Virus record (IMG/VR): IMGVR_UViG_3300044829_000002
Coordinates: 1 to 64,000 of that record
DNA length: 64,000 bases
Direction: 5' to 3' (one strand)
DNA from: a virus
Lineage: Duplodnaviria; Caudoviricetes
A program made the translations under genes and the position numbers. How positions within the stretch are numbered: position 1 is the stretch's first letter; each line of letters begins with the position of its first letter. Positions 16,986-64,000 of this stretch are shown here, in pieces. Below the pieces are notes generated by a model that saw only the letters and a program-made list of their open reading frames with translations, was not told the DNA's origin and made no database searches.

Positions 16986-17018
16986 GGTGACTCCCTCTCG
17001 GGGTGGCGTGCGACCCGG

Positions 17019-17066
17019 TGTCGCACTAGACACGACACTAGTCGCACCCTCTGACAAGAGTCAACA
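17019..17066 (-). promoter_or_regulatory. Promoter TTGACT-N18-TAGTGT with operator copy 6 (17019-17037)
   Basis: tgtcg-cactagaca-cgaca, with extra GTCGCAC half-sites at 17008-17014 and 17041-17047. Confidence 0.8.
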
Positions 17067-38922: not shown

Positions 38923-39273
38923 TCAGATCGCGGGCACGAGGCCCACGGCAGCTCGGACCGAGAATAGAACCAGCCAACTCGCGAATCTTTGGACTGTGTT
39001 GCCAGCCCAAAACTCGGCCAGATAGTTGCCCGGAGTCGGGAACTCAGTGCCGGTCCATGTGTAGCCGACCATTCCGGTTGGCCCGTCGATGAGCGTGGCG
39101 TTGAACGTCGTAGGTGCGCCGTCGCGTTCGCGGACGATGAATTTGACGGTGTAGCCGGTGAGGGTCAGCGCGGCACCGTTGCTGTCCTGGTATTGATACA
39201 AGAGGGGCATCGGCCGTTCCCCGGTTACGAACGGACCGATGTTCTGATTCGGTTCAGTAATCTGAATCGTCAT
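38923..39273 (-). CDS. BppU-like Ig-fold virion protein
   Basis: LTLTGYTVKFIV...DGPTGMVGYTW...PGNYLAEF. Confidence 0.6.
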   Translation of the reverse strand: MTIQITEPNQNIGPFVTGERPMPLLYQYQDSNGAALTLTGYTVKFIVRERDGAPTTFNATLIDGPTGMVGYTWTGTEFPTPGNYLAEFWAGNTVQRFASWLVLFSVRAAVGLVPAI

Positions 39274-41334: not shown

Positions 41335-42012
41335 CTAGTATCGGTACGGTGCCATTATCAATTCTGGCAGTTGCGCAGCAACCGCTGCACTCTCTACCTC
41401 GACACCCAGCAGACGCGGCTGCTGCCCGGTAGGCGCGGTCAGGCCGCACGTTTGAGATCCGGCACTAGCAGCATTCTGATACGCGTAGTAGGCGACATAG
41501 CTCGCGGTGGACTTGTCATGTATCCCGGTCTCCGTCGCGCTCGAACGGTAAGCACGCGAGCCTGGTGCGATCGCGTTGAAGTCACAATCAAGCCAACTGA
41601 CAGTGCTGTTCGCGGCCTGCGTCGTTATGGTGCCGCTCGGAGCTGAACCGCCAGCAGCGTTCATCGTGGCCGGGGTGCCTAACTGCGCCCCGGTGTACGC
41701 CTCGGTGATGGAGGAGTGCCACCCGTTGCTGCCGGACCACGCGACCGTAACGGACATCGAGCCTGGCGAGCCGGACACGACGCACCACCACAGCCCAGCC
41801 CAGCCCTCACCGACCACTGCCGATGTGATTCCGGTAAAGGTTTGCCCGCCACCAGTTGGAGTGCCGCCAATAGTGGCAATCTTCTCTGACGCGGCCTTGA
41901 CGATAATGATGTCCCCGTTGGCCGGGGTGAACGCAGGCGAAACAGTGGAGACGGTGCTAGAAGCAGCCGACCCTTGCACAGCCGGGGAGTTGTAAGGCGT
42001 CGGCCCTGGCAT
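41335..42012 (-). CDS. Putative virion structural protein (beta-rich)
   Basis: S/T/G/A-rich composition; lies in the structural operon. Confidence 0.55.
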   Translation of the reverse strand: MPGPTPYNSPAVQGSAASSTVSTVSPAFTPANGDIIIVKAASEKIATIGGTPTGGGQTFTGITSAVVGEGWAGLWWCVVSGSPGSMSVTVAWSGSNGWHSSITEAYTGAQLGTPATMNAAGGSAPSGTITTQAANSTVSWLDCDFNAIAPGSRAYRSSATETGIHDKSTASYVAYYAYQNAASAGSQTCGLTAPTGQQPRLLGVEVESAAVAAQLPELIMAPYRY

Positions 42013-42032
42013 TAGCTGTCACCTTCACCCTC

Positions 42033-43217
42033 CTACGGACTCGGAACGGTGCTGCCGTCCGGGTGCTTGTTACCCGTCCAGGCCGTGATCGTGCCCGGAG
42101 CTGCCGAATAGGCATCCCCGTACACCGCACCGGCGAACACGTTGTCTGTGACCGATACGGCTGAGCATTCGTTGCGGAAGGTGTACGCGCCGCCCTGCAA
42201 GTAGTTGTTCTTGACGATCTCGCCAGTCTGCAACGTGCAAGGAATAACCTGCCAGAATACTGCCGCCGTCACGGTGCCCGACGTTGCCACTACAACCCGG
42301 TTGCTGTCATAGGTGATGTTGTTGCCGCCCTGGCTGAACAGCCCGTCACCGTGGCACGTGGACGAACCGCACTGAGCACCGTCGGTCGCGTAAATCTCGC
42401 TGTGCTGAATCAGGGAGCCACCGGCCGGGTCGAGGCCCTGCGGGAAGCCAGAGAAATTGGAGCGATTGACCAGCATGGGTCGAGTCGAGTTCGTCGTCAC
42501 CGCGCCGATGTCGCTGCCGCCGTTGTATGTAGTGCCTGAGCGCAACGTGGAATCGGTAACGCTCAGCGTGGCCCCGGCCGTGCCGTTGGCGCACTGCGCG
42601 TACACGTCATGCCAGGTGCTCGACGGTGCCCATTCGATGATCGACTGAGTGACGTTGAGATTGCCGCAGCCCGTCCAGTAGATGCCGCCCTTGACCCATG
42701 CGTGGTCGAGACTCAGATTCGCCTGATCGCATCGCAAGTATTTGTAGGTGGCGTTCCAGCTCGTGCACCCGGCCGGGATGACGCCGTTGGCCTGGGAGTA
42801 CACGGTCAGCGCAGACGTGGCACCGAGATAACCGGTGGTTCCAGCGTCCGGGTAGGTGCTCGGTGGGGGCGGTGGGGGCGTGGTCGTGGTCGGTGCCGTC
42901 GTGGTCGGGGTCGCGGTCACCGTCACCGTGTTAGTTACGGTGTTGGTCACGGTCGCTGTAGCCGTCGTGGTCACGGTTTCTGTGGTTGTCGGCCCGGTCA
43001 CGGTCGTTGTCGGGCCTGGCGCGGTGGTCGTGGCCTGAGCCAGCGTGCACGTGATCGTCTCAGTGAGCGCCACGGTGTCGCTGTTGCGCGTGCACGTGTC
43101 CGATGATGTGGCCGCACCGGATCGTGTCGCGTTGAACGCGATTAGCCCTACAACGAGCAGAGCCGTTGCGATCAATACCGCCAGACGCTTTCTGCTCCAA
43201 ATACGTAACGAAATCAT
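42033..43217 (-). CDS. Secreted right-handed beta-helix protein with Thr/Pro linker
   Basis: Signal peptide, then a T-rich linker, YPDAGTTG and repeated Asn-rich beta-helix turns (HGDGLFSQGGNNITYDSN...NNYLQGGAY). Confidence 0.65.
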   Translation of the reverse strand: MISLRIWSRKRLAVLIATALLVVGLIAFNATRSGAATSSDTCTRNSDTVALTETITCTLAQATTTAPGPTTTVTGPTTTETVTTTATATVTNTVTNTVTVTATPTTTAPTTTTPPPPPPSTYPDAGTTGYLGATSALTVYSQANGVIPAGCTSWNATYKYLRCDQANLSLDHAWVKGGIYWTGCGNLNVTQSIIEWAPSSTWHDVYAQCANGTAGATLSVTDSTLRSGTTYNGGSDIGAVTTNSTRPMLVNRSNFSGFPQGLDPAGGSLIQHSEIYATDGAQCGSSTCHGDGLFSQGGNNITYDSNRVVVATSGTVTAAVFWQVIPCTLQTGEIVKNNYLQGGAYTFRNECSAVSVTDNVFAGAVYGDAYSAAPGTITAWTGNKHPDGSTVPSP

Positions 43218-47491: not shown

Positions 47492-47640
47492 GGTCGTTAC
47501 TCCCCTAGGAACGTAGCCGTGAGGCGGCATTGAAGGGAATGTAACAATCATGGACGGCAACTGACCACTACTTTGACGGCAAGTTTTGGGCAACTCTCGC
47601 CAGGTGTCGCAGTCCGTTCTACAGGCTCGGCACATAGCAA

Positions 47641-50993: not shown

Positions 50994-52808
50994 TCACCGC
51001 ACGACCGGACTCAGCGTCGGCAGCATGTTCACTACCGCCGCGTCGGTCATGCGCGTACCGATGCGGGGTGAGCCGTCCGGTGCGAGATAGCACTGGTAGG
51101 CACCGGGGCTGCCGGGTCGAGCTTTGATGAAGTCACCCCAGGTGCCGGTGTTCACCGGGCATTGGAACAGGTGAGCCTGGCATTCAGCCGGGTGCAGCAG
51201 CTCGTACCCGCCGTTGCTCAACGGGGAGATACGGATTGCGTGCGGCAGTCGTGCCTGCTTCAAGAGTTGGACGGTGTGTGCTTCGCTGCCTGGTCCAGGC
51301 TTGCCGTCAGGTGGCGGGACAGGCTGTTCGGGTGGCGTATTGGTCGGTGACGGCTCCGGCTCTGCACCTGAAACGGCCGGTGCGTCCGTCGGGATCGTTC
51401 GCGTAGTGCCGATCGGTACCTCGACGTAGACGCCGGTCAGTTCCTTCAACGCGGCGAACGCGGTGGCCGGGTCTGTGGAGAGTTTCAGCAGGATCATCCT
51501 GATCAGCTCGTCGTTGGACGGCTTGTCATCCTCATCGAACCCGATCTCGCGCCGCAACGCTTCACCGGATATTTCGCCCAGGCCGTAGGCGGTGACCGCC
51601 TTGTCGGAACGGTCGGGGCGGATGGTGATTTCGCTCGCGTCGTACCAGACGACGATGTCCTCGATGCTTTCTCCGGCCGCGAGGAGACGCGGATGGAGGT
51701 AGCCCTCGGTCAACGCCTGGCAGATCAGTTCCGTGTCGGGTGCCAGGTATCGCTTGAATGATGTTTCCTCGATCAGCCAGCCGGACCAATGGTTGATGTC
51801 GGCCATGCCGAGCAGTGATTCCGGGGGGACGTCCAAGTCCATTGCTAGCCGCTTGTCGGCAGCCTCCCGCTTCTCGATGATCTTCTGATCGAGTTTCATC
51901 GTGAAATCGATGTGTTGCACCTTGTCCACGTATTCCGCCGCGATGCGGATCGGCATGGGCACCACGGCCGACGCTGAGCCGGGGGTGCTGATCGCTTCCG
52001 CCGCGATCTCGATCCATTCGGCGACGAACGGGTCGGCCGCGTCCTGGAATTCTTCTCGCACAGGGAAGGTGACTTCGTTCGGCAGTACGAGCAGGCCCGC
52101 CGATGCGATGCGGGAAAGATACTGGCTGACGATGTGCCGGTTCGCCAGCTCAAGCTCGCGCATGGTGGATCGTGCGGCGCGTGCTGAGGAGTCGGCGATG
52201 TGGAAGAACCGCTTGTGGGGTCGCCACACCCGGACCACGAGGGATTCAGCGGACAGGGACCGCCAGCGGATGGTGTTGCCCGCCGACCGCTCATCCACTA
52301 CCTGATACGGCGACACCGCATTCTCAGCCGTTCCGTAGCGACTGGCGGCGGTCGGCCGATACCGGACCTCGTCGGTGGAGCGGGCGGTCCACACGTTCCG
52401 CCCGTCGGCCAGGGTCTCTCCGATGATGAATCCTTCACCGGGGACCGAGAGATACACGGCGAGGTTGGACATGATGCCGGATTGGGCACCGGCTGATAGT
52501 TCGGAGATCAGGTCAGCGGCGGGGCCGACGTCGAGAATGGTCGGCTCGTCTTGACCGGCGTCCTTTTTCGCGGCACGGAGCCGAACGCGGGACAGCATGT
52601 CCGCTTTCCACATGACGGCGTTGCGGAACATGCCGAGCGAATCCCAGTAGCCCCACGCTTCCCGCTGCCATTCCTGCTCATCGGGTAGCAGTTTGGAACG
52701 GTATGGGTCGGTGGCTGATTGCTGGCTGACGATGGTCGCGGCAGCTACTAGTCCGGCAGACGACTGTTTCGGTGTGGGCGCGAGCCAGGACAGCAGCCTT
52801 AGTGCCAT
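50994..52808 (-). CDS. Portal protein
   Basis: WQREAWGYWD..G....VPGE...RVWRPH...ADS...SRIASAGLL.LP.E...RLAMDLDVPPE.LLG...NHWSGW. Confidence 0.9.
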   Translation of the reverse strand: MALRLLSWLAPTPKQSSAGLVAAATIVSQQSATDPYRSKLLPDEQEWQREAWGYWDSLGMFRNAVMWKADMLSRVRLRAAKKDAGQDEPTILDVGPAADLISELSAGAQSGIMSNLAVYLSVPGEGFIIGETLADGRNVWTARSTDEVRYRPTAASRYGTAENAVSPYQVVDERSAGNTIRWRSLSAESLVVRVWRPHKRFFHIADSSARAARSTMRELELANRHIVSQYLSRIASAGLLVLPNEVTFPVREEFQDAADPFVAEWIEIAAEAISTPGSASAVVPMPIRIAAEYVDKVQHIDFTMKLDQKIIEKREAADKRLAMDLDVPPESLLGMADINHWSGWLIEETSFKRYLAPDTELICQALTEGYLHPRLLAAGESIEDIVVWYDASEITIRPDRSDKAVTAYGLGEISGEALRREIGFDEDDKPSNDELIRMILLKLSTDPATAFAALKELTGVYVEVPIGTTRTIPTDAPAVSGAEPEPSPTNTPPEQPVPPPDGKPGPGSEAHTVQLLKQARLPHAIRISPLSNGGYELLHPAECQAHLFQCPVNTGTWGDFIKARPGSPGAYQCYLAPDGSPRIGTRMTDAAVVNMLPTLSPVVR

Positions 52809-52885
52809 TGCCGCGCCTCCCAAACGTTACGGTTTGTAGCGCAGCATATCTACCGGGAGTCGATTTTGCCGCGTCGTCTTCGCGG

Positions 52886-53470
52886 CTAGATCCAACGCCG
52901 GGGTAATCCCTGAGTGCCGCCGCCTCGGTCCCAGTGCCAGTTATAGGTCACTTCTGGCAAGTGAACGATCTTGGCATTCTGCGCCACGCAGTCCATCGTG
53001 AATCGCTCGTCTTCCCCGCCGACGATCGGCCACTCCTCATCAGGTGGCGTGAACCGTACCGCCTGCGCCAGCTCGGTTCTCACCATCACCCCGGACATGC
53101 TGCCGGTGATGTGGGGCTCGGCGTTGTCGAACGGCTTGCCGAAATACGGCAGTGGGTCCGGGCCGCGAATGTAGGTCAGGTCATACCAGCCGTATACGTA
53201 GTCCGCGTCGGTGTCCTCGGCGCAGGCTAGTAGTCGTTCGATGTGCTGCGGCTTGTGCTCGTCGTCGTCGTCCAAGAACGCAACCCACGTGGTACGCACA
53301 CCGGCCAGCGCCCGATTGCGGGTGTCCCATGCACCGATGTGAAACAGATCCACAGCGACAGACACACCGTCAACCCGGTGGGTCTGCTCCCACACCGAAT
53401 CGAGCGCCCGCCACAGCAAGTCTCGACGCGGCGGGATGGTTGGAATAGCGACCGTCACGTCGCGTTTCAT
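52886..53470 (-). CDS. Glycosyltransferase family 2 (paralog 1)
   Basis: VTVAIPTIPPR...TRNRAL...WVAFLDDDDE (DxD). Confidence 0.85.
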   Translation of the reverse strand: MKRDVTVAIPTIPPRRDLLWRALDSVWEQTHRVDGVSVAVDLFHIGAWDTRNRALAGVRTTWVAFLDDDDEHKPQHIERLLACAEDTDADYVYGWYDLTYIRGPDPLPYFGKPFDNAEPHITGSMSGVMVRTELAQAVRFTPPDEEWPIVGGEDERFTMDCVAQNAKIVHLPEVTYNWHWDRGGGTQGLPRRWI

Positions 53471-53775
53471 CAGCCGAGGCGGTCCACGAGTACAGCGGCG
53501 GCTCCCCACACGGCCAGCCAGATCAACACCGGCAGCGGTAGGCCCCGGATCAGCCAGGTACCACCCACCAACCCGAGGGAGATCCAGCCGGAGGAGCACC
53601 AGTGACAGGACACCAACTCACCGATAGCCCAGTGATTGCCGTTGGGCCGGTCCGGTCGCAGCCCCACGATCTTGTCCCGTGTCCACTGGACGGGCGGGAA
53701 ATCGTCCTTGACTGTCAGCCGCGTTAAGCGAGCTGACCCAACCGATAATACAATCAGTAGTAGCCAGAGTGTCAT
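53470..53775 (-). CDS. DUF1360-like membrane protein
   Basis: ARLTRLTVKDD...ELVSCHWCSSGW. Confidence 0.75.
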   Translation of the reverse strand: MTLWLLLIVLSVGSARLTRLTVKDDFPPVQWTRDKIVGLRPDRPNGNHWAIGELVSCHWCSSGWISLGLVGGTWLIRGLPLPVLIWLAVWGAAAVLVDRLG

Positions 53776-54314
53776 TCTCCCACCACTCTCAATATCCCCA
53801 ACTCGTGCGGACATACGCCGCCATTGATATGCCGCCCGAAATTACAGTTAGCGCACAACACCCGGAATCCTGCCGGGTAGCCGCGTTTACGTAGCCAGCC
53901 AGCGAGACGCACGCCATTAGTTTCGCGTCGATGAGCCGCGCCGTTGCTCTCAATGTGATCTAGTTGCAGAAACGCTCGCTCAGTCTCGCCGCAGCAACAG
54001 CAGAACCCGCCATACGCGTCAATGGCTGCCTGCTGATCCGCTCTCGCCCACGATGCGTTCTGCTCTCGACGTCGTTCACGATTGAGTTCTCGGAGTTCTC
54101 GTTCCCGAGGTTTGTACGCCTCGTTATATGCCTTGACGTGCTCCCGATGCTTAGCTCCCCAAACCCTATGCCGCTCTCGGTACAACTCTCGGTGAGCTTG
54201 GCGGTACGCTCTCATGCACGTTTTACATTGACTGCACAGGCCGTCTTTCTTACCCTTGCTGCGCCAGAACTCATCGTCGGGCTTGCTTACCTTGCAACCC
54301 GTACAACGCCTCAT
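53772..54314 (-). mobile_element. HNH endonuclease with N-terminal Zn finger
   Basis: CTGCK...CKTC; AYGGFCCCCGE...LQLDHI...VLCANCN. Confidence 0.75.
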
Positions 54315-54550
54315 GCCCGCTCCGGCCAGTGCCAGGTGCCGCCGGGTGAATCCTCCGGCATCGAATGGCCGATGTGCTGATTGAGGAAGATGCCTTGCGG
54401 GTTCATCACGGCCAGCCCTACTCGGTGCTCGTCGTCGTCGGCGTCCACTTCGGTCACGATCGCGGCGCGGCATTGCTGCGTGTACTCGCCGCCCGGTGTG
54501 CCGTAGCTGACGTAGTGAACGATGCGGCCCACGGTCGGTTGCTCAGTCAT
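54311..54550 (-). CDS. Conserved phage hypothetical protein
   Basis: PTVGRIVHYV...RAAIVTEV...LAVMNP.G...GTWHWPER. Confidence 0.7.
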   Translation of the reverse strand: MTEQPTVGRIVHYVSYGTPGGEYTQQCRAAIVTEVDADDDEHRVGLAVMNPQGIFLNQHIGHSMPEDSPGGTWHWPERA

Positions 54551-54852
54551 GGCGCGACCTCCGGCGCGGCGTGCTCGCCAGGCTCGTCAGGCGGCACCCC
54601 CAGTAGCGGCGTGCTCGAATGAGTGTGTGGTGCGATGTAGCCAGCGACAGCGGCGCCGAGTGCGGAAATGACCAGCAACACCAGACCGGCCACAGGAGTA
54701 GGCACCGCAGCGACCGCGTCGGCAACATCAGCAGCGTCACCCGACGCGCCCCACACGGACACGCCAAGCAGCCACAGACCGAACGTGCCGAGCACGGCAC
54801 CAGCACCAGACCCGGCCGTGGCAGCAACGACCTTCGTCTCGATCGCGCTCAT
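54547..54852 (-). CDS. Holin-like membrane protein
   Basis: Two TM helices; KVVAAT...AGYIAPH; directly after the endolysin. Confidence 0.65.
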   Translation of the reverse strand: MSAIETKVVAATAGSGAGAVLGTFGLWLLGVSVWGASGDAADVADAVAAVPTPVAGLVLLVISALGAAVAGYIAPHTHSSTPLLGVPPDEPGEHAAPEVAP

Positions 54853-55859
54853 GCTGGCCCCACAGGGTCAAGAGTGACGTTGCCAGTGTATTTCTGTGCG
54901 GGCAGTGCGGCAGCAATGGCGGTGACAAGCGCTGCCAGTTGCGCATCTGAGAGGGAGAGGTTTACAACGGGAGGGTCTGCCTTGATCGCAGCCACGATCT
55001 CAGCCGTCGTCGGAAAGTCCAATGCGTTGACGGCAGCTACCGTGTCAGTACCAGCCTTGGTCGCTGCCTTTGTCGCGTTGTTCCCGGCAGCCGTAGCCGA
55101 GTTGCCTGCATTCACCGCGTTCTGCGCGATAGTGCGCAACGGCGGATCACTGGTCACCACGGCGTATCGGATATCCGATACCCACTGTCTCGTATCTTGC
55201 AGGAATTGATGTTCCTCGGGTGTCATGTCGTCTCCTGTCGAGCTGTTGGCATAAGGGGAATCGGCGGGCCAGTGAGCATGCAACGCGCTCACGTCGGTGA
55301 TCACGTTGCGATCTGTCGAGTATCCGGGAATGTAGTTGCCGACTTGCTGCCAGATGCAGATGTCGGGTGAACTGGCCGACCAGCCGGGGAAAGCCGTCGA
55401 TGCGGACAGCCAGCACTTCTGATCGATGATCCGATTGGCCCGCAGGTACTTGGCGAGATCTCCTTGCCCGTAGAACGAGATCAGATAGCGGCCCGCGTTG
55501 ATGTCCTGAATGCCCCGGAACGCGTCAGCCACCGCGCCGTAACTCGACGTGGGCACGTTGACGTCCACGCTGAACGGGAACCAGATGGTGCCGTCGGCCG
55601 GGAACTCGCAGCGGATCGCGCCCTCAATACCGATCCGCGCCGCAGCTTGTCCAGCCGAACGGTTGGAGACTAGTTCCCACAGGCCGCGCTCGTAATTGGG
55701 CCAGGCACCCAGCCCAGCGGCGCGCAGCGCGTTGACATGCGATGCCGATTGGGCATATTGACCGGAGACGTAGACGTTGGAAGCGATGATGCCAGCAGCT
55801 TTGAGCACGCTCGGTGGCGGCGGGAACGCGTGATCAGATGCGAACAGAGGACCAGCCAT
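54849..55859 (-). CDS. Endolysin, DUF1906/GH25-like glycoside hydrolase
   Basis: NYE...A...G...IWFPFSVD...FYG...WLSAS...WQQ...DRN motif order; flanked by membrane genes. Confidence 0.75.
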   Translation of the reverse strand: MAGPLFASDHAFPPPPSVLKAAGIIASNVYVSGQYAQSASHVNALRAAGLGAWPNYERGLWELVSNRSAGQAAARIGIEGAIRCEFPADGTIWFPFSVDVNVPTSSYGAVADAFRGIQDINAGRYLISFYGQGDLAKYLRANRIIDQKCWLSASTAFPGWSASSPDICIWQQVGNYIPGYSTDRNVITDVSALHAHWPADSPYANSSTGDDMTPEEHQFLQDTRQWVSDIRYAVVTSDPPLRTIAQNAVNAGNSATAAGNNATKAATKAGTDTVAAVNALDFPTTAEIVAAIKADPPVVNLSLSDAQLAALVTAIAAALPAQKYTGNVTLDPVGPA

Positions 55860-55868
55860 GCCTGAACC

Positions 55869-56210
55869 TTATCGTCTAGCTATTTCATCACCGACGTACT
55901 GATGACTGACTGTGCCGCGTCTGCGAAACACGGCGGCAGCGAACAGCCACAGCCGCCACCATAGACAGATCACGACGAACCCGAACGCGAGCAGCCGCAG
56001 CCATTGAAACGTCACCGAGCGGGGATTAACGAAGTGGCTCAAGGTTGACAGGTCGAGCACGAGCGCAATGGAGATCATGTACATCATCAAGTGCTTGCCG
56101 ATCGCGGTCCTCCGCCACGGCACGCGCGTGTATGCCAACGGCGCCAGGTTGGCTGGGACACAAGCCACGTACAGCATCCATGTCCCTATCGTGATCAACG
56201 TCGGGTTCAT
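55869..56210 (-). CDS. Membrane protein (holin-like)
   Basis: Three TM segments; W.RT.IG.HLM motif. Confidence 0.65.
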   Translation of the reverse strand: MNPTLITIGTWMLYVACVPANLAPLAYTRVPWRRTAIGKHLMMYMISIALVLDLSTLSHFVNPRSVTFQWLRLLAFGFVVICLWWRLWLFAAAVFRRRGTVSHQYVGDEIARR

Positions 56211-56416
56211 TCCTGACCGTCTCTCCCGCTGAGAACCTGGACCAGATCCTCAGCGATGTAGTTACGTTCGATTCGTCGCGTGAGTTTCTGAACAAGTGCT
56301 TTGACCTCAGACGCTTCATTGTGTGTTTGGGCCAGAAGTTTCTTCGCCTCATTGTGTGTTTCGGTGTGCTTGGCTTGCTGTTGACGTCCGCGTCGCCAGT
56401 TCAGCACCCTAATCAC
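56207..56416 (-). CDS. Small basic protein in the lysis cassette
   Basis: ATGA coupling; RNYIAE motif. Confidence 0.5.
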   Translation of the reverse strand: MIRVLNWRRGRQQQAKHTETHNEAKKLLAQTHNEASEVKALVQKLTRRIERNYIAEDLVQVLSGRDGQE

Positions 56417-56705
56417 CGCCTAACTCGCTCCTGCCGTGCTTGGCCCGTACCGCCTGGTCAACAGCCTCGAACGTCTTCTGTGCAGCCAGCGCGGTCGGCA
56501 GGATAACCTGCTGGAACTGTGAGCGGTTCTCTAGGGCGAGGCTACGCCACAGGTCACGGTCAGCTTTAACTTCCTCGTAAGTGCTGCGCTGCACCCAATC
56601 TCGCAGTACGGAGCGAGGCCACCACCGTCCGGTGAAGATCATCAGTACGGCGATTGTGACCAGGCCGCCGGCTCCGATGGGTGCGGCCAGGCTCCACTGA
56701 ATCAT
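56409..56705 (-). CDS. Membrane-anchored coiled-coil protein
   Basis: N-terminal TM; RDLWR motif. Confidence 0.55.
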   Translation of the reverse strand: MIQWSLAAPIGAGGLVTIAVLMIFTGRWWPRSVLRDWVQRSTYEEVKADRDLWRSLALENRSQFQQVILPTALAAQKTFEAVDQAVRAKHGRSELGGD

Positions 56706-57334
56706 CAGCGAGTAGCGATCAGGATGGTCACACCGACCGACACCATCAGGATCACGGTGCCGATGATTGACAAGAGCTGCGCCGTGTCCAGCCGCCGCGC
56801 GTTGGTGTTGTCCACGCCACCGGCCCGGTATTGCTCGATCGTGGTCAGTCGATCCTTCAAGTCAGCGATCTGCGCGGCCAGCGCGTCGGTCGTTGACTTG
56901 AACAACTCGGCCAGTTTGTTGATCGTTTCGCCGGTGGCGACCTCGGATTTATTGATCGCCAGCGTGTTGGACTTGTTCTGCTCGGAGCTGGCTTCCTTCT
57001 GCGCGGCAAATGCCGCGTCTACAGCAACCTTGTTGTCTCGCGCCTCCCGTTCCTGGCGGGTGTCGCGCTCAGCGAATTGGGTGCCGACGGAATGGAACTT
57101 CTCATCCGACAGCTCCCGCAGATGGGTGATCTCTTTCTGAATGTCGGTCGGAGTCCGGTTCACGGTCTCATTCAGCAGTCGAGTGGCAGTGTCGATGCCA
57201 CGCAGCCGTTCGCGGATCACGTCGAGCTGGCCGTCCACGTAATCCCGTTCTGCCTGCACCGACCGGATCAGTTGCTCGGTCGTGAGCACGGTCGGATCTG
57301 GTACTGGGGGTCTTTCAACACTGGTCATGATCAC
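56705..57334 (-). CDS. Coiled-coil protein with C-terminal TM
   Basis: Heptad-rich; hydrophobic C-terminus; RBS GGGAGGG. Confidence 0.6.
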   Translation of the reverse strand: MIMTSVERPPVPDPTVLTTEQLIRSVQAERDYVDGQLDVIRERLRGIDTATRLLNETVNRTPTDIQKEITHLRELSDEKFHSVGTQFAERDTRQEREARDNKVAVDAAFAAQKEASSEQNKSNTLAINKSEVATGETINKLAELFKSTTDALAAQIADLKDRLTTIEQYRAGGVDNTNARRLDTAQLLSIIGTVILMVSVGVTILIATR

Positions 57335-57378
57335 CCTCCCCTTAATTCACAGGAAGCGTATATGACCGCAAGCGAATT

Positions 57379-57939
57379 CTAGGCGGCGAGCCAATCCTGA
57401 TTGACGATGTATGACGTCCAGTCCGACGGCTTGACCCGGCGACCGTCAGCCAGCGACGGCGACGGCTGATGCAACGCCCGATAGAGGAACGCGAACAGCG
57501 ACGAGCACACCACATGACCCGGCACCCCGGCTCCGTGCCAGTTGGACGCGAACAGCGACGGCAGGCCGAGCGCGTCCATCCCGTCGGCGGCGATGCCGAC
57601 CCAGTCGTATTTGGTGCCGATCGTCTGCACCATGTTGTGCGCTAGCGCGTCCGACACCGGGTCGGTGAGCGGCTGATAGATGTTGGACATCATCAGTTTG
57701 GAGTTGAAATATCGGCGCATGTCCACCCAGCCGACGCCGCCTGGTCTGCCCTCAATGCCCCACGGGACACCGTCGGTCCAGTGATGGAACCCGGCGACGT
57801 GATTGCCGAGATTGGGCTTGTCTCGCAGACAGGCACCCCAGCGGATCATGCGGCCTGAGAACCCGGCCGAGCGGACGACGAACACGTGCCCTGGTTTGAG
57901 CTGTTCATACATCGGCAGTAGGTCCACCATCGCAGCCAC
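57379..57939 (-). CDS. Permuted papain-like (NlpC/P60, YiiX-type) amidase
   Basis: NHVAG (His) precedes VVCSS (Cys); IEGRPGGV; G.KYD. Confidence 0.7.
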   Translation of the reverse strand: MAAMVDLLPMYEQLKPGHVFVVRSAGFSGRMIRWGACLRDKPNLGNHVAGFHHWTDGVPWGIEGRPGGVGWVDMRRYFNSKLMMSNIYQPLTDPVSDALAHNMVQTIGTKYDWVGIAADGMDALGLPSLFASNWHGAGVPGHVVCSSLFAFLYRALHQPSPSLADGRRVKPSDWTSYIVNQDWLAA

Positions 57940-57941
57940 TC

Positions 57942-58376
57942 CTATCGCCAGATTTTGTGCCGCACAATCAGACTGACATGACTTTGATCAATGCCGAACG
58001 CGTCCGCGATGACATATTGCGTCTCTGCGCCTGTCGCATAGCGGCGTCGGATCTCGTCAACTTGCTCGCGTGTGAGTTTTGCATATCCGTTGCTCTCGCC
58101 GGGGAAACTATTGCGGGCATCCCGACCACGGGCGTGGCGGTCAGCGACATTCTCTTGCTGCGTTCCCTCGTACAGATGTCCCGGCGCAGTGGAGATACAC
58201 ACCGGATTGTCGCAGTGATGATTGGCTTGATAGCCAGGACGCGGCAGTCGGCCCAGGTGGTCGATCAAGGCCACCTGATGAGCGAACGTGAATTGCCTGC
58301 CGAACCGCCACGCCTTCTGCCGGGCATATCCGTCACAGTTACGAGTGCCAGGGGCTTCGATGCATGCCGATGTCAT
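57942..58376 (-). mobile_element. HNH homing endonuclease with C-terminal HTH
   Basis: AHQVA...HHCDNPVC...HLYEGTQQENVAD...AKLT...VDEIR...IADAFGI. Confidence 0.8.
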
Positions 58377-58996
58377 TACCAGTTCTCCGGCTGGCCGCTC
58401 GTGTTGCGGTCATGATGTCTCCAGTACCAAGACTGCTCCGGTAGATGCACAATCCGGGCACCCGCTGCAACACAGCCTAATTCAAACCGCCAGTCCTCAC
58501 CTCCGGCGATATCACCCTCAGCCGGTGGCGTGAATCCAACAGCCTGCGCCAGCTCGGTCCGGCACAGCACCGTCATGGTGGTGTGGTGCGGGTTGGACGG
58601 GTCGAACACCTTGCCGAAATGGCCCAGCACATCCCACGATCGGGACGTGTCCCAGTAGGAGAACACGTAGTCGGCCACCATCTTGTGGGCGCAACCCAGC
58701 AGCCGTTCCAAGTGCTGCGGGTAGAACTCGTCATCGTCATCCAGGAAGGCCACCCACGGGGTGATCACCGGATCGAGTGCCCGTTGCCGGGTCGCCCAGG
58801 CCCCGTCATGGTCACGGTCAACAGCTATCGAGATCGCGGCCGGTAGATGCGACTGCCGCAACGCACTGGACACAGCCAGAGGGAGCAGAGTGTCGGCTCG
58901 CGGCGGGATGGTAGGGATCACCACCGTCACCGCATCGTCGTCCATAGTGCCGATCCTCAGCAATTGAGCGCTGGCTTCCGCCGCGAGGCTTGTCAT
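58376..58996 (-). CDS. Glycosyltransferase family 2 (paralog 2)
   Basis: VTVVIPTIPPR...WVAFLDDDDEF...GEDW. Confidence 0.85.
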   Translation of the reverse strand: MTSLAAEASAQLLRIGTMDDDAVTVVIPTIPPRADTLLPLAVSSALRQSHLPAAISIAVDRDHDGAWATRQRALDPVITPWVAFLDDDDEFYPQHLERLLGCAHKMVADYVFSYWDTSRSWDVLGHFGKVFDPSNPHHTTMTVLCRTELAQAVGFTPPAEGDIAGGEDWRFELGCVAAGARIVHLPEQSWYWRHHDRNTSGQPENW

Positions 58997-59214
58997 GAGT
59001 ACAGCGCTCCGCGCGCCTTGGACACGGCCCGCTGCAACTCTTCCGCCTCGTCCGGGTAGCGGTAAGGCACGCCGTGGAACACGAGGTTGATCGTGCCGAT
59101 ACGTACACCGTTCTCCTCGGATACGCCTGCGACATATTCGGCGACCCATGACAGGTCCATCGGCCCAAGTGGCGGCAGTGGCCTGATCGGTGGCGGGACG
59201 AAATATTCAGGCAT
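58993..59214 (-). CDS. Hypothetical protein
   Basis: Overlapped start and stop on both sides. Confidence 0.45.
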   Translation of the reverse strand: MPEYFVPPPIRPLPPLGPMDLSWVAEYVAGVSEENGVRIGTINLVFHGVPYRYPDEAEELQRAVSKARGALYS

Positions 59215-60403
59215 TGCCTGCTCCGAACGCAACATAGTCATGGTCCCCATCAGCGAGGTACGGGTGGCAGCGCCACAGATCGATCACGCGGGCACCCGGT
59301 TTCAACGTGCCCCGGAGATCCAGGCCGACCAGCGGCAGCGCGAGCACGACGATGTCAGCCTCAGCCTCATGAGCCTCGACCAAATTACCTCGCGCCAGCT
59401 CGTACGCGAGCCGGTCGCCGAACGAGTCGATCCTGTACCCGGTGCCCGTCTTGTAGGAGCGGCCCAGCACGGCGAACGTCTTACCGGCCAGCTCGGTGAA
59501 CGTCAACCCGCCGAGCGCCAAATGCCGGACCCAGGCCAGATGCTCCTCGTTCATCGCGTGAGTGACCGCGCCGAGCGAACCACCGGCAGCAGCGTAGGCA
59601 TGCCCGTCACGCGGCAGACACGGCCCGCCGAACCCGGCACCAGGAGTCATGGCCTTGTGACCGATCAAGGACTGAGCCGTCAACGCGGCTACCACGTCGT
59701 CGGCGTTGGCACCGCGCTCATGACACATACGCCCGATCTGATTGGCGAAATTGATCTTCAACGTGGCGAACACATTAGTTGCCAGCTTGGCGATCTCAGC
59801 CGACTCATAGGACATGATCATCGGCCGCGACTTCGGAGCCACCTTGCGCAGAATCGCCGACACCACGTTCGCCGCGATCGGATTCTCATCCCCGATGATC
59901 TGCACTTCCGCCGCCCGCAAATCCTGGATCACACTGCCCAATGCGATCAAGGTAGGGCAGTAGATCAAGACCTGTTTCAACGAACGGGCCAACGGCAGCA
60001 GCGTGTCCCGGCACGCACCCGGCGAGACCGTGGACACCACACCCACGATGCACCGCTCCACCGTCCGACTAGGACCGAGATCCTTCATGGCCTGCTCGAC
60101 ATAGTCAGTGACGAACTTCCCCTCCAGCGACGGTGTCGGCACGACGATGAACACCACGTCGGCGTGCTCCAGCATGTCCCGAGGCCGCGTCAACAGCAAC
60201 GCATCAGGCAGGAAAGAATCCGCATACGGCTCCTGGAGACGCGTCCGGCCCACCTTCACTTCCTCTCGCACTGCCGGGTCGCTGTCCCATGCCAACACGT
60301 CCGCATCAGATGCGGCCAGAGTGAGCGCGAACGGCAGACCAAGTTTTCCGAGCCCGAGAACTCCGACGATGGGCCTACTCAACAGCTTGTCTCCTATCTT
60401 CAT
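59207..60403 (-). CDS. UDP-glucose/GDP-mannose 6-dehydrogenase family
   Basis: GVLGLGKLG Rossmann motif; VPTP; KLATN...KINFAN; GFGGPCLPRD catalytic Cys. Confidence 0.9.
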   Translation of the reverse strand: MKIGDKLLSRPIVGVLGLGKLGLPFALTLAASDADVLAWDSDPAVREEVKVGRTRLQEPYADSFLPDALLLTRPRDMLEHADVVFIVVPTPSLEGKFVTDYVEQAMKDLGPSRTVERCIVGVVSTVSPGACRDTLLPLARSLKQVLIYCPTLIALGSVIQDLRAAEVQIIGDENPIAANVVSAILRKVAPKSRPMIMSYESAEIAKLATNVFATLKINFANQIGRMCHERGANADDVVAALTAQSLIGHKAMTPGAGFGGPCLPRDGHAYAAAGGSLGAVTHAMNEEHLAWVRHLALGGLTFTELAGKTFAVLGRSYKTGTGYRIDSFGDRLAYELARGNLVEAHEAEADIVVLALPLVGLDLRGTLKPGARVIDLWRCHPYLADGDHDYVAFGAGNA

Positions 60404-60612
60404 CGCGGGTATCTCAAGGGGTACCCGTAGATCAAAGGCACGTCATAAGACATCGGCAGCGGCTTGCCTATTGGACTCTCCCACAACTTCATGATCTCAA
60501 TGCCCAGTGTCGTCTCGGTACACCAGTGAGGCCCGCAGCAAATCGACACAGGACATTCGTCCAGAACACAAAACGGCTCAGTTGGATCAAGCGCCATGAA
60601 TCGCTCAGTCAT
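60400..60612 (-). CDS. Hypothetical Cys-rich protein
   Basis: ATGA coupling on both sides; C..C...CC..H.C. Confidence 0.45.
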   Translation of the reverse strand: MTERFMALDPTEPFCVLDECPVSICCGPHWCTETTLGIEIMKLWESPIGKPLPMSYDVPLIYGYPLRYPR

Positions 60613-61072
60613 GACGGCGTAGATGCTCTCTCTTGAAACGCTGGCGTTCATTCTTACATGTCCGGCATGACCGCCAGCCGCGCTTGTCAACGCTAGTGTT
60701 TCTCTCATCGAATTGATGTCCACGCAGACAGTGTGTTCTACGTTCATTCCCGTTCGTTCGATGACGCCCCTTAGTCAGGCAGTCGTGCATATTGTCAGTT
60801 TGCGTGCCGAGCCATAGATGATCATCGGCCCAGCACGGCGGGTTGTCACAGCGGTGTAGGACGTGGGGAGTCTCAGGCGGGATTGGGCCATGCCGTTCGA
60901 TCCACGCGAGGCGGTGGACAAGATAAGTCTTGCCCTTGATTCTGACTTGCCCATAGCCGTCCTGGGTCGTTGTACATCTGTCCCATACGAGGCACGGCGT
61001 GTCGAGCGGGCCACTCTGCTCGTGAGACGTCAGCAGCAGTCGGTCAGCCGAGTTCGTGGAGTCGGTCTGCAC
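60605..61072 (-). mobile_element. HNH homing endonuclease
   Basis: GPLDTPCLVW...GYGQV...VHRLAW...HRCDNPPC...HLWLGTQTDN...CLRGH. Confidence 0.8.
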
Positions 61073-61715
61073 CGCGACCTCCCGTGTTTCCTTTGGCCCC
61101 GGATTCAGCGGGCCTTATCGAGTACCGCCAAGTCTTGATGCCGCAAGCATGATAGAACCTCGCCCCTGCATCCAACATGCGGATCAGCGCCAGGTAGTCT
61201 TCGCATTCGCCGCTGAACGGCACGCGCATGCTGTACGGCTGAGGGAACCCGCCAGCCTTCCGAATCGTCGCCGTCCTCACCAGATACGTGACAGGCACGA
61301 AATTGCCGACCCTGCGCAGCCATAGCGCTTGTTTCGGCCCGAACGGAATATTGATCGGCTCAGCCACCAACTTGCCGTTGTCGTCACAGCAGGCCAGCGG
61401 GTCACGCCCACCGATGATCTCCGGGTAACTGAACACCATGTCCGCGCCTGTCCGGTTCGCTGCCTTGACGAGCACTCGCAGATGGTTCGGCTTGAATTCG
61501 TCGTCGTCGTCAAGAAAGGCAACCCAATCCGTCGTTACTCGCTCCAAGGCTTTGTTGCGCGTGGTCGCCGCACCCTCCCGCTCCGTGTCGAGTTGGACGA
61601 CGATGTCGCCGGGTGGCGCCTGCTGATTGCGGACCGAGTCCAGCGCTAATTCGAGCAAGGTCTCCCGGCCGGGAATCGTCGGAATCAGCACGGTCACATC
61701 GGATGCGCGGATCAT
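61044..61715 (-). CDS. Glycosyltransferase family 2 (paralog 3)
   Basis: VTVLIPTIPGR...WVAFLDDDDEF...CEDY. Confidence 0.85.
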   Translation of the reverse strand: MIRASDVTVLIPTIPGRETLLELALDSVRNQQAPPGDIVVQLDTEREGAATTRNKALERVTTDWVAFLDDDDEFKPNHLRVLVKAANRTGADMVFSYPEIIGGRDPLACCDDNGKLVAEPINIPFGPKQALWLRRVGNFVPVTYLVRTATIRKAGGFPQPYSMRVPFSGECEDYLALIRMLDAGARFYHACGIKTWRYSIRPAESGAKGNTGGRGADRLHELG

Positions 61716-61899
61716 CGAACGGTTCGGTCAATCAATACGTACGGGGCAACCTCATTGGACTGCCCCGGCAGCTCCCGCAGCACCATGCCGTGCGACTGCG
61801 CCAGTTCGCTCAACTCGCCCAGGTCCACTTCATCCACGATGCCGGACCACGGCAGCCCCTGGCTCACTCGGTTGGTTATCAGTTTCCGCTCTTGATCGT

Positions 61900-62244
61900 T
61901 CACGTGTCCTCCTCGGAGTCGAGCCGTTGCCATTCCCAGTCGGCGAACGGCGCGTGTAGCCGGTAGCGGCCGGGTGTCATCCCTGCGCCGTAGTAGCCAG
62001 CGTGTTTGCCAGCAGCGCAATCGAGTAGCGCGTTATCAATGCGCTCCCGCAGCGGGTGTTTCACGGAGTAGCCGTCACCAGCGATAGTGACAAGGTGCTC
62101 CGTCTCAGGCTCGTTCAAAATCTTCTGTGCGGCGTCCGGGTCGGGGCAGGCCGGGTCACTACACATGATCTTGATGCCGTGCGCGGTGTAAAGCGTCTCG
62201 CCGCAGCCGAGCGGACAGTATCCGGCAATTTTCATGCCACTCAC
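61900..62244 (-). CDS. Hypothetical protein
   Basis: GYCPLGCG...CSDPACP...HPLRER motif. Confidence 0.5.
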   Translation of the reverse strand: MSGMKIAGYCPLGCGETLYTAHGIKIMCSDPACPDPDAAQKILNEPETEHLVTIAGDGYSVKHPLRERIDNALLDCAAGKHAGYYGAGMTPGRYRLHAPFADWEWQRLDSEEDT

Positions 62245-62659
62245 TCGATTCGATAATCAGCAGTACCGGCCCAGGCGGTCACTGTGCCGGTTACGGTGCG
62301 ATAGGCAGCGGTCATGTGGACTGATAGGCGGCGGCAATGATATTCACCGAACCATTGCCGTGCCTGTCTGTCGGCGTCTGCTAATGCAGAGACTCGGTCG
62401 GACCCAACGCATTGCACGGTCAGATACTCCAGTGAATCAATTATCAGTGTCATCCTCGATCTCCGCTCGTGCGTTCAGCCACGGTGTGCCCTGTGCCCGG
62501 AGTTGCCGCAACCACGCGAACAGCGCGCCGGAATGATCTTCCAGTGCCTCGTCGCGTATCCACGCCAGCGTCATCAGACATGTTTCGCAGACGAACTCGG
62601 TGCGAAACTCGATCGCATTGTGTACCAGCACCGCCGAGTGCGACCACGGCGCGCACGTC

Positions 62660-62863
62660 TCACCCTTGACCATGAGCGGACTGAGTCAGGTCGCTCAGCT
62701 CGGCCACCCGAAATCGCACGGTGGTCCGGTGCTTGACCGGGTCGTAGTCGGCCTCGACGGCGACGGCGAACGCCTGATAGTTCAGCGGTCCCATCACCGC
62801 ACCGATCACGGTTTCTCGGACGTCGCCCCGGTACTTGGCGTTTCCAGGCAGTAACGCTGTCAT
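62660..62863 (-). CDS. Hypothetical protein
   Basis: RBS AAGGGAG; operator upstream. Confidence 0.5.
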   Translation of the reverse strand: MTALLPGNAKYRGDVRETVIGAVMGPLNYQAFAVAVEADYDPVKHRTTVRFRVAELSDLTQSAHGQG

Positions 62864-62881
62864 GCGGGCTATCTCCCTTGC

Positions 62882-62900
62882 GGTCGTGTGCGGTACGACA
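62882..62900 (-). promoter_or_regulatory. Operator copy 12 (GGTCG-N9-CGACA) overlapping -10 TAGTGT
   Basis: ggtcg-tgtgcggta-cgaca; the TAG of the -10 is the upstream gene's stop codon. Confidence 0.6.
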
Positions 62901-63674
62901 CTACCGCTTCATGCGTAACGTTGCTGCTAAGTAGCGGCGATTCGGCGTCAGATACGTCACCGACTCCACATCGAACCACTCACCGAATCGCTCAACCAGC
63001 CGAGCCTCGTCATACCAATCCGCCCACATGCCAACCTCATCGAACGCACGCAGGAACGTCTCACGCATCGGATCATCCGTCACATCATGCGGCGGCTCCG
63101 TACCGGTGTACAGCCGCCACCCTTCATCGGAATACACCATCAGGCGAACCTCACCCAGCGATTGGAGCAGCCCCGCGAATCGTTGCATCGTAGGGATCGG
63201 CTGGCGGATATGGTGCAGCACTCCGGCGCAATGCACCACGTCCACATCCTTGGGCAAGCGGCTGCTGTAGCTCTCAGGCATGACGGTGCTTCCGGCCGGT
63301 TCGTAGCCGTACAGCCGCAGCACCCGCTCAGCTAGTCGCACGTTGGACTCAACGATGTCGGCCAGCCAAACCTCATTGCCAGCCTTGGCGTATTGCAGCG
63401 CCTCGACGCCGATCCCGCAGCCATAGTCGAGTACGTGGGCGTCACGGGTGACATCGAGCTTCAACGCGGACCGCCACAATCCTTCGTGATTGCGCCACCC
63501 GGTGTAGCGGGTGACCTCCAGCGTGTCGATCACATTCCGCAGCGCGACATCGTCCAGTTGCAGCAACTCCGCCGACGACACGTAGCCAACATCATCTACT
63601 GGGATTCTGACCCATTCACGCACGGCGACATGGTCGGTCAGAATCAATGACTTCTCTGGGTCCATCCGGTACAT
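62901..63674 (-). CDS. Class I SAM-dependent methyltransferase
   Basis: VLDYGCGIG motif I; ADIV; DVVHCAGVLHH. Confidence 0.85.
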   Translation of the reverse strand: MYRMDPEKSLILTDHVAVREWVRIPVDDVGYVSSAELLQLDDVALRNVIDTLEVTRYTGWRNHEGLWRSALKLDVTRDAHVLDYGCGIGVEALQYAKAGNEVWLADIVESNVRLAERVLRLYGYEPAGSTVMPESYSSRLPKDVDVVHCAGVLHHIRQPIPTMQRFAGLLQSLGEVRLMVYSDEGWRLYTGTEPPHDVTDDPMRETFLRAFDEVGMWADWYDEARLVERFGEWFDVESVTYLTPNRRYLAATLRMKR

Positions 63675-63676
63675 GA

Positions 63677-64000
63677 TCAGGTCTCCCTGGCGGGCTTGCC
63701 GCCCTTGCCGATGATCTCTAGATGGGGGAGCGGGAAGATCAGTTTGCCGCCTGAGTTCAGATAGCGTTTCTCCCGCTCGATGATTTGCGACCGAAACCAC
63801 CACGGCCCAATTAACATATAGGCCGGTTTACGGTCACGCGCCTCAGCCTCGCTGATGATCGGCACGCCGACCGCCGAGAACATCTTGCCCACCTTGTCAG
63901 GGTTGCGCTCCACCGCGAACCGGCAGTCAAGCTCATCTACCTGTGCGGCCTGCCAGATCACGGCACCACGCGTGGATGCGGCGTACAGGTAGCACTCTTG
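63677..64000 (-). CDS. NDP-hexose C-methyltransferase-like protein, C-terminal domain (partial, 5' end beyond the window)
   Basis: YAASTRG...ERNPDKVG...VPIISE...LIGPWWF...IIERE..YL.SGGKLIFPLP matches the C-methyltransferase C-terminal pattern. Confidence 0.8.
   Translation of the reverse strand, partial: QECYLYAASTRGAVIWQAAQVDELDCRFAVERNPDKVGKMFSAVGVPIISEAEARDRKPAYMLIGPWWFRSQIIEREKRYLNSGGKLIFPLPHLEIIGKGGKPARET

Follow-up and report, generated by a model that had tools for sequence, protein, structure and literature searches.

What does a tailed phage build with a cluster of sugar-handling genes placed between its terminase and its portal, and on which acceptor is the product put? The question is raised by the virus record IMGVR_UViG_3300044829_000002 (Duplodnaviria; Caudoviricetes), of which bases 1-64000 form the stretch analysed here (the window); the complete IMG/VR record measures 76,915 bp, is rated 100% complete, has a GC content of 60-66% and carries 127 bp direct terminal repeats at its ends, and genome coordinates beyond 64000 continue the window numbering. 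By sequence and fold, the module comprises six soluble glycosyltransferases (GTs), namely three inverting GT2 paralogs, two further GT-A enzymes and one retaining GT4, and in addition four enzymes that modify sugar donors or the glycan. We consider it probable, with moderate confidence, that this phage-borne module glycosylates virion proteins and also tailors the donors for doing so. We infer the virion as the target because the cluster fills the gap between the large terminase (TerL) and portal genes and recurs beside virion genes in other phages, next to head genes in several of them, and not because the genes share an orientation.

Three paralogous genes, all on the minus strand, encode short soluble GT-A enzymes of family GT2: GT2a (52886..53470, 194 aa), directly upstream of the portal gene, its duplicate GT2b (58376..58996, 206 aa, 58% identical to GT2a) and GT2c (61044..61715, 223 aa, 40% identical to GT2a). 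This trio had been recognized in a first-pass annotation made from the sequence alone, and the assignment holds, with scores of 39, 24.6 and 52.9 bits for GT2a, GT2b and GT2c against a PF00535 cut-off of 23.3 bits and with the motifs IPTIPPR and WVAFLDDDDE common to all three in the alignment. The CAZy GT2 features, PF00535 above threshold and a DxD-type acidic motif (DDD in GT2a), are thus present in each paralog. Relatives carry one gene of the GT2a/b type and one of the GT2c type, so it is the GT2a/b type that was duplicated in this phage; GT2c is 46-55% identical to its counterparts in three related viral loci (L037, L038, L039). The best solved match of the short-GT2 family profile was PglI (6e-14), and transmembrane segments are absent from all ten glycan enzymes.

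Two further GT-A genes, together with a gene for a short-chain dehydrogenase/reductase (SDR), lie beyond base 64000 and were missed by the first-pass annotation. The fourth GT-A gene (genome 66363-67040, minus strand) matches PF00535 at 23.9 bits, and its product is 45% identical to a prophage GT-A and 47% identical to the GT-A of L037, while the fifth (genome 67215-68018, minus strand) was assigned through phrog_14945 (4e-36) and has homologs in 63 Streptomyces phage records. The sixth glycosyltransferase is encoded where the tail genes end, immediately ahead of RecE/RecT (25513..26733, minus strand), and is a GT4-family enzyme of GT-B fold and retaining type. It matches phrog_7162 at 1.7e-26 and is a borderline case in Pfam (25.1 versus a cut-off of 25.0). 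Its AlphaFold2 (AF2) model, built from a 29-sequence alignment, reached a predicted local distance difference test (pLDDT) value of 89.2 and a predicted template modelling (pTM) score of 0.86, and the top Foldseek matches of the model were ManT (7qsg), BshA, PimA, MshA and the GT4 entry 2jjm (1e-12 to 1e-10). The two-Rossmann GT-B fold is closest to GT4 members and the prophage homolog passes PF00534, in agreement with the earlier proposal that a GT4 closes the tail genes.

A C-methyl branch on a sugar donor is well supported as a product of the module, judging from the enzymes predicted. The window ends within a gene for an NDP-hexose 3-C-methyltransferase (C-MTase), and the fragment previously noted at 63677..64000 proved to be the 3' part of a complete gene of 418 aa (63677-64933, minus strand). 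The protein has the three-domain architecture of an N-terminal four-Cys zinc domain (PF08421, 45 bits), an S-adenosylmethionine (SAM) domain (PF13489, 52 bits) and PF08484 (114 bits), with CRAC and CMHC pairs and an HEH active-site motif at residue 216. It can be aligned over its full length with the solved sugar 3-C-methyltransferases MtmC, TcaB9 and KijD1, and its matches in the PDB reach 1e-39 for MtmC (over residues 3-411) and 2e-33 for TcaB9.

The adjoining SDR of 293 aa (genome 64933-65814, minus strand) is a Rmd-type GDP-4-keto-6-deoxymannose reductase. It matches PDB entries 2pk3 and 6x3b at 1e-49 and 3e-40, its best matches to dehydratases (8e-27 for GDP-mannose 4,6-dehydratase, GMD, and 7e-20 for RmlB) are weaker than those to Rmd, and it falls far below the NCBIfam cut-offs for gmd and for dTDP-glucose dehydratase. 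Its motifs are GHAGFAG (the GxxGxxG of the Rossmann fold), TSEE and YGASK (of the Ser/Thr-Tyr-Lys triad), and most of its nearest homologs, which are about 295 aa long and 50-63% identical, carry the name rmd, with P0002 being the closest at 63%. A 4,6-dehydratase, which the Pfam name of this SDR had suggested, was ruled out by the PDB and homolog searches. Where dehydratases or epimerases had been expected, beyond base 64000, there is thus one SDR, which is a reductase and no dehydratase. The genes are tightly packed, with junctions of -4 nt between p104 and Rmd, -1 nt between Rmd and C-MTase and +2 nt between C-MTase and the class I methyltransferase (MTase); the C-MTase and the Rmd-type 4-ketoreductase are translationally coupled, the Rmd stop overlapping the C-MTase start.

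In the whole phage genome we found no other SDR of the Rmd kind, no dehydratase and no sugar nucleotidyltransferase, and the phage would therefore modify GDP-sugar intermediates of the host and not synthesize donors from scratch. Of the original proposal that the phage makes its own uronic-acid and C-methyl-branched donors, the C-methyl branch stands and the uronic acid is plausible. Homologs of the C-MTase with 51-57% identity occur in Spirillospora, Actinomadura, Nonomuraea, Dactylosporangium, Amycolatopsis and Rhizomonospora. At ten actinomycete chromosomal loci the gene following the C-MTase encodes a different SDR, only 25-27% identical to that of the phage, and the one typed among these ten (L019) is a true GMD (2e-109 versus solved GMD structures). 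GMD and Rmd together make GDP-D-rhamnose. Because the chromosomal C-MTase homologs adjoin a GMD gene and the phage partner is of the Rmd type, the branched sugar is probably GDP-linked, and the same gene content suggests that the C-MTase transfers its methyl group to C3 of a GDP-linked 4-keto-6-deoxyhexose; the step order and product stereochemistry of this route are putative. The C-MTase was not found in 50,697 deposited phage records from actinobacterial hosts, its matches among deposited phages, with 25-34% identity, being confined to a cyanophage and to uncultured jumbo phages, and no actinophage is among the best matches listed for the Rmd-type reductase.

The remaining two modifying enzymes are an NDP-sugar 6-dehydrogenase and a class I SAM methyltransferase. 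The dehydrogenase (59207..60403, minus strand, 398 aa) belongs to a divergent subfamily of the UDP-Glc/GDP-Man dehydrogenase superfamily (PF03721, 67.7 bits; PF00984, 71.8 bits). Its catalytic motifs had been described as intact, and indeed the catalytic Cys in GGPCLPRD and the KLATN motif both align to the UDP-glucose dehydrogenase (UGDH) 3vtf. Matches in the PDB were UGDH (4e-26), CalS8 (5e-26), UDP-N-acetylmannosamine dehydrogenase (5e-24) and GDP-mannose dehydrogenase (1.5e-16), and a scan of viral contigs with the dehydrogenase as query returned no relative. With these motifs in place, a step to a uronic-acid donor is plausible. The methyltransferase (62901..63674, minus strand, 257 aa) starts 2 nt after the C-MTase stop and matches Pfam Methyltransf_12/23/31, as expected from its earlier class I assignment. 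Weak matches to the D-glucose O-methyltransferase 6uv6 (8e-4) and to MftM (5.5e-4) were found, and the gene is kept at 49-53% identity in the clusters of L037, L038 and L039. It is probably a sugar O-methyltransferase, from which methyl-capping of the glycan may be inferred.

The case for a virion target begins with gene order. Every functionally assigned gene of the phage genome lies on the minus strand, and the co-orientation of glycan genes with virion and lysis genes, which the first-pass annotation had stressed, is thus correct as to strand and carries no information. Transcription order starts with small genes, followed by TerL (genome 69723-71153, minus strand, Terminase_6N) as the upstream boundary of the cluster, the glycan and lysis region, and the portal gene (50994..52823, minus strand, phrog_776 at 2e-104) as the downstream boundary. 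After the portal come a MuF-like protein, capsid hexamer- and pentamer-type proteins, head-tail and tail genes including the tape measure (35181-31387, minus strand), and the GT4; RecE/RecT, a replication initiator, a DNA N6/N4 methylase and small genes follow. The distance from TerL to portal is 16.9 kb here versus 5.5 kb in GT-less relatives. The GC content at third codon positions (GC3) of the glycan genes is 0.65-0.84, near the value for the rest of the genome. The host is a probable actinobacterium; the major capsid protein shares about 30% identity with its counterparts in phages of Streptomyces, Microbacterium and Gordonia, and a near-identity search of the cluster against the 50,697 phage records gave no match, nor was a near relative found among deposited phages.

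Related viral loci were compared with the cluster. Two relatives (L012 and L013; TerL 46%, portal 44% and capsid 51% identical) have a terminase-portal interval of 5.5 kb with zero sugar genes. Two others (L038 and L039, capsid 64%) carry a mini-cluster of 7.8 kb at the terminase-portal junction, in which an SDR and the class I MTase (49%) are accompanied by three GTs, one of phrog_14945 type and two GT2s (53-61%). The contig behind L037 (capsid 53%) has the whole cluster, colinear but downstream of the tail genes, with GT-A 47%, Rmd 51%, C-MTase 46%, MTase 53%, a GT 41% and a dehydrogenase-like gene 31% identical, plus two GT2s. In L080 and L107, a C-MTase-like gene and two GT2s stand between the MuF/p580 genes and the capsid gene, immediately upstream of the latter. 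The closest relative found (L038/L118, IMGVR_UViG_3300015242_000025; capsid 64%, phrog_792 protein 67%) is of low GC, with a GC3 of about 0.13-0.25 versus about 0.75 here, and a single lineage of phages seems to infect hosts that differ greatly in base composition.

A prophage of Rhizomonospora bruguierae has a GT4 (27%), a GT-A (45%), Rmd (56%) and C-MTase (52%) directly upstream of its terminase, portal and MuF genes. Its terminase and portal belong to other families (phrog_38 and phrog_104), and nothing besides the four-gene sugar cassette is common to this prophage and our phage in about 50 kb. In strain NBRC 107566 (NZ_BBQH01000015.1, ~176-193 kb; L027, L035 and L036), the prophage or remnant has the order DnaB-like helicase, GT4, GT-A, Rmd, C-MTase, terminase, portal and MuF.

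Members of the short GT2 family were found in at least 225 viral stretches, of which 80 loci were fetched for neighborhood counts at a distance of 10 kb. A GT4 was found near the short GT2 in 59 of the 80, a phrog_14945-type GT in 35/80 and an Rmd-like SDR in 17/80; a C-MTase or C-MTase-like gene was present in 10, an MTase in three and a dehydrogenase in a single locus. In summary, these counts and the gene contexts above indicate a common GT2 and GT4 core with optional tailoring genes, in a module that appears to move between phages and to stay by virion genes. We also noted a four-gene module that recurs in uncultivated viruses (L077, L081, L084, L089, L094, L096 and L116), made of a distant C-MTase-like gene, 23-27% identical over about 410 aa, two short GT2s and a GT4; for this module no counterpart was found among deposited actinophages.

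Among the virion genes, the best candidate for a glycan acceptor is p526 (39270..40850, minus strand), which belongs to the virion module and contains about 20 repeats, each 22 or 24 aa long and each with (I/V)PTP at its end. Ser and Thr make up 28% of it, the six residues V, T, A, P, S and I account for 82%, and charged residues are almost absent. The repeats are kept at the protein level, with no tandem array at the DNA level. Neither PHROGs nor the Rhizomonospora genome contains a match to p526, the ESM Atlas gave weak feature-based viral matches, and a single-sequence AF2 model showed a periodic all-beta pattern at low confidence (pLDDT 45.5). Beside it lie two more Ser/Thr-rich genes by composition, p225 and p394 (41335..43217, with p394 at 42033-43217, minus strand). 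The p394 protein combines a signal/anchor helix at its N-terminus with a Thr/Pro linker and with a right-handed beta-helix domain that resembles domains of secreted proteins from Actinomycetota, and it may be a depolymerase or a glycan-binding protein; a signal anchor is odd for a virion gene.

All three (p225, p394 and p526) are extra virion-module genes without counterpart in the GT-less L012/L013, and at that position GT-less L013 has only a DUF4082 protein of 215 aa. The GT-bearing, low-GC relative G008 encodes at the same position a 658 aa protein with a p225-like N-terminus (a weak match to p225, E 2e-4 over 51 aa) and a long Ser/Thr-rich 'SFTG' repeat array; the C-terminus of this protein ends in ISGEEPGT, versus ISGEEDGT in p526. 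Ser/Thr-rich repeat proteins are therefore present in the virion module of both GT-bearing relatives examined (2/2) and absent from the GT-less one, which suggests a mucin-like protein as the putative acceptor. Carried further, the p526 scaffold, glycosylated by the six GTs with a GDP-derived 3-C-methyl-6-deoxyhexose and a uronic acid, would form a mucin-like layer on the particle, and the GT2 and GT4 core, together with its optional tailoring genes, would constitute a mobile 'virion glycocalyx' module that unrelated phages exchange and that at least 225 viral stretches contain; we put this forward as a tentative picture that we ourselves find rather doubtful.

Apart from the substrates of the dehydrogenase and the class I MTase, the enzyme assignments have good backing from sequence, fold and context, and a route consistent with these genes can be drawn as follows. 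The GMD of the host would convert host GDP-mannose to GDP-4-keto-6-deoxymannose, the phage 3-C-methyltransferase would place the methyl branch at C3, and the coupled Rmd-type reductase would reduce the 4-keto group, giving a GDP-6-deoxy-3-C-methyl-hexose of the evalose or virenose class. In parallel, the divergent NDP-sugar 6-dehydrogenase would supply a uronic-acid donor, most likely UDP-glucuronic acid, and the class I MTase would probably O-methylate a sugar. Late in infection, the GTs would join phage-tailored and host sugars into an oligosaccharide in the cytoplasm. The targets would be virion proteins, with p526 and its neighbors as better candidates than the C-termini of capsid or tail-tube proteins, and by analogy with mycobacteriophages the glycan coat may shield or stabilize the particle or alter adsorption.

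Several points weigh against virion glycosylation by this module. The putative acceptor is read from genomic context, and soluble enzymes of GT-A or GT-B type are also able to use lipid-linked acceptors at the membrane. As no 4,6-dehydratase is encoded, the pathway depends on the host. The correlation with repeat proteins compares two GT-bearing lineages with one GT-less lineage, the GT-carrying L107 has no repeat-protein gene at that position, and the capsid hexamer, pentamer and phrog_792 proteins have no Ser/Thr-rich C-terminal extension when compared with GT-less relatives. With regard to the donors, the dehydrogenase scores 170 bits in TIGR03026, below the cut-off of 189.8, and Pfam did not detect the nucleotide-binding C-terminal domain PF03720 in it; the alignment to 3vtf runs into the C domain, up to residue 347, and about 18 metagenomic homologs at 43-53% identity likewise have no PF03720 match. 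Finally, Che8, one of the mycobacteriophages with glycosylated virions, offers little homology: its gp109 and gp110 gave no BLASTP match to the phage GTs better than E 0.1, and the sole link is a weak one, GT2c matching the N-terminal part of gp108 with 27% identity over 99 aa (E 2e-7).

The acceptor could instead lie in the host envelope. The enzymes would then remodel a cell-wall polysaccharide, a teichuronic-acid-like polymer or a glycolipid by way of host carriers and exporters, and so block superinfection or mask receptors on lysing cells and debris. Soluble GT2 and GT4 enzymes often act on lipid-linked intermediates, PglI, the best solved match of the GT2 profile, is active on an undecaprenyl-diphosphate-linked glycan, NCBIfam returned weak matches to the teichuronic-acid enzymes TuaG and TuaD, and both the lysis genes and p394, a beta-helix protein of secreted type, are located within the module or close to it. 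However, no integrase was found in the phage genome, which excludes lysogenic serotype conversion, and neither a priming phosphoglycosyl transferase nor a flippase was found in the whole genome, so that the absence of a flippase noted for the window extends to the complete record. Moreover, in five independent phage contexts the genes stand beside or within head and tail genes and not among early or moron genes, and we therefore regard an envelope target as unlikely. Another soluble or secreted target, such as a non-virion phage protein (p394, for example), a host protein or a small molecule, would suit the C-MTase and Rmd families, which are characteristic of sugar pathways for natural products and O-antigens, and the Thr/Pro-rich linker of p394. 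Glycosylation of a signal-anchored protein, however, would take place outside the cytoplasm, where nucleotide sugars are lacking, no aglycone-forming enzymes are encoded, and the position beside virion genes recurs in other phages; such a target is improbable.

Many phage GTs modify DNA, and a genome with several HNH endonucleases and a DNA N6/N4 methylase invites the idea that the GTs attach sugars to the bases of phage DNA, a hypermodification that would protect it from restriction. The routes to 5-hydroxymethylcytosine, 5-hydroxymethyluracil or 5-hydroxycytosine need a thymidylate-synthase homolog, which even the newest 5-hydroxycytosine route requires, and no ThyA homolog and no C5-cytosine MTase were found in the whole genome; a search of the genome for Tet/JBP, run without a positive control, gave no match. 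As regards a ThyA-type enzyme, the earlier statement that no base-hydroxylation enzyme is visible thus applies to the whole genome as well. Six GTs with a branched deoxysugar and a uronic acid would also make a DNA glycan of unprecedented complexity, and we hold DNA glycosylation to be highly improbable. The largest non-structural open reading frame (ORF) has at most 456 aa, so the phage encodes no DNA polymerase and its replication relies on the host.

Glycosylation of virion proteins, the reading we favor, has precedents. Virion glycosylation by tailed phages was shown in 2023 in a few mycobacteriophages and affects antibody recognition, and O-glycosylation of virions by phage GTs is reported for the mycobacteriophages Che8, Corndog and Myrna (Freeman et al. 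2023, Cell Host Microbe 31:1216, as cited in PMC12363180 and PMC12619734). These phages resemble ours in having several soluble GTs, in some cases with methyltransferases, for which glycosylation of the phage's own structural proteins in the cytoplasm is the proposed function, and the Che8-type glycans sit at the C-termini of capsid and tail-tube subunits, whereas no C-terminal acceptor tail is evident on the capsid or tail proteins of our phage. The present genes lie between terminase and portal, in contrast to the right genome end in the Che8 type, and they go beyond that type by a C-MTase, an Rmd-type reductase and an NDP-sugar dehydrogenase.

Closer GT relatives are found in cultured phages of other actinobacteria. 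In the Streptomyces phage KimJongPhill, gp107, part of a GT-MTase-GT cassette, is 45-47% identical to GT2a and GT2b and 31% identical to GT2c; Zuko likewise carries such a cassette, and the GT4 family, too, is one that our phage shares with these cultured phages. The Arthrobacter phages Atuin, Mimi and Racecar have a region with UGDH, three GTs and a nucleotidyltransferase, with GTs about 34% identical to the short GT2 (in Atuin, the dehydrogenase is annotated as a UDP-glucose dehydrogenase, and homologs of GT4 and GT2 are among the three GTs). The cluster of our phage, with five GT-A and one GT4, is larger than those of Zuko, KimJongPhill and Atuin.

For the donor pathway, the nearest parallel is the route to virenose (6-deoxy-3-C-methyl-gulose) in the lipopolysaccharide of Coxiella burnetii, an in silico proposal (PMC3539893). 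Its logic equals that of this phage, with a GMD, a TylC3-type 3-C-methyltransferase and then an Rmd/GMER-type 4-ketoreductase (PMC3539893), but it is encoded in a bacterial O-antigen locus, whereas here the genes belong to a phage and the dehydratase is not phage-encoded. Autonomous capsid glycosylation is known from chloroviruses and Megavirinae, with GMD/GMER and multi-GT proteins in PBCV-1 (PMC5408694, PMC9614988, PMC10117803). They share with this phage virus-encoded nucleotide-sugar modifiers and GTs for unusual, partly methylated sugars on the particle, but these are giant viruses of eukaryotes, with genomes of 300 kb to 1.2 Mb versus 77 kb for a siphovirus-type phage, and the enzymes are not orthologous.

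Other genes are interspersed with the glycan genes. Three HNH endonuclease genes (60605-61072, 57942-58376 and 53772-54473, minus strand) have a GC3 of 0.56-0.63, below that of their neighbors, which suggests that they are selfish and may favor reshuffling of the module. At least five HNH genes are present in the genome (the others at 13188-13736 and 23689-24150, minus strand), along with one GIY-YIG gene at 20919-21602. A holin (55869-56210, minus strand, PF23778), an Rv2525c-like glycoside-hydrolase lysin (54849-55859, minus strand) and a DUF1360 protein (53470-53814, minus strand) are encoded in the same region; lysis genes and small transmembrane proteins (54849-56210) among glycan genes between terminase and portal are at an unusual site for a lysis cassette. 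Directly 3' of TerL lies a gene for a papain-family (C1) cysteine peptidase (genome 68808-69587, minus strand), followed by a 789 nt stretch with just two small coding-like ORFs.

Elsewhere in the genome, the longest capsid ORF (45695-47635, minus strand) starts with about 50 Cys/Arg-rich residues that are missing in relatives, and the true start is probably near the methionine of MTDVTPFEL, at about residue 48. The early/middle region encodes a DUF1643 protein, the N6/N4 DNA methyltransferase and a DUF932 protein (8202-8792, 14534-15904 and 15978-17057, minus strand). Promoter and terminator scans of the genome performed no better than shuffles, and GC3 frame analysis did not distinguish genuine genes on the plus strand from shadow ORFs; a plus-strand ORF at 7584-8099 is possible.

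If virion glycosylation is what the module serves, a phage of mid size would tailor its own donors, including a rare C-branched deoxysugar, and not just use host sugars, and it would do so with GT families that differ from the validated mycobacteriophage ones. The effect of virion glycosylation on antibody recognition bears on phage therapy. Cultured carriers of the GT family exist (Zuko, KimJongPhill and Atuin), which makes the prediction testable. The C-MTase/Rmd pair and the actinomycete C-MTase-GMD loci may provide an entry to a GDP-linked 3-C-methyl sugar pathway that has so far been proposed, in silico only, for Coxiella virenose (PMC3539893). For the phages themselves, the GT2 and GT4 core, present in at least 225 viral stretches, appears to be a unit that moves between unrelated phages and stays by the virion genes.

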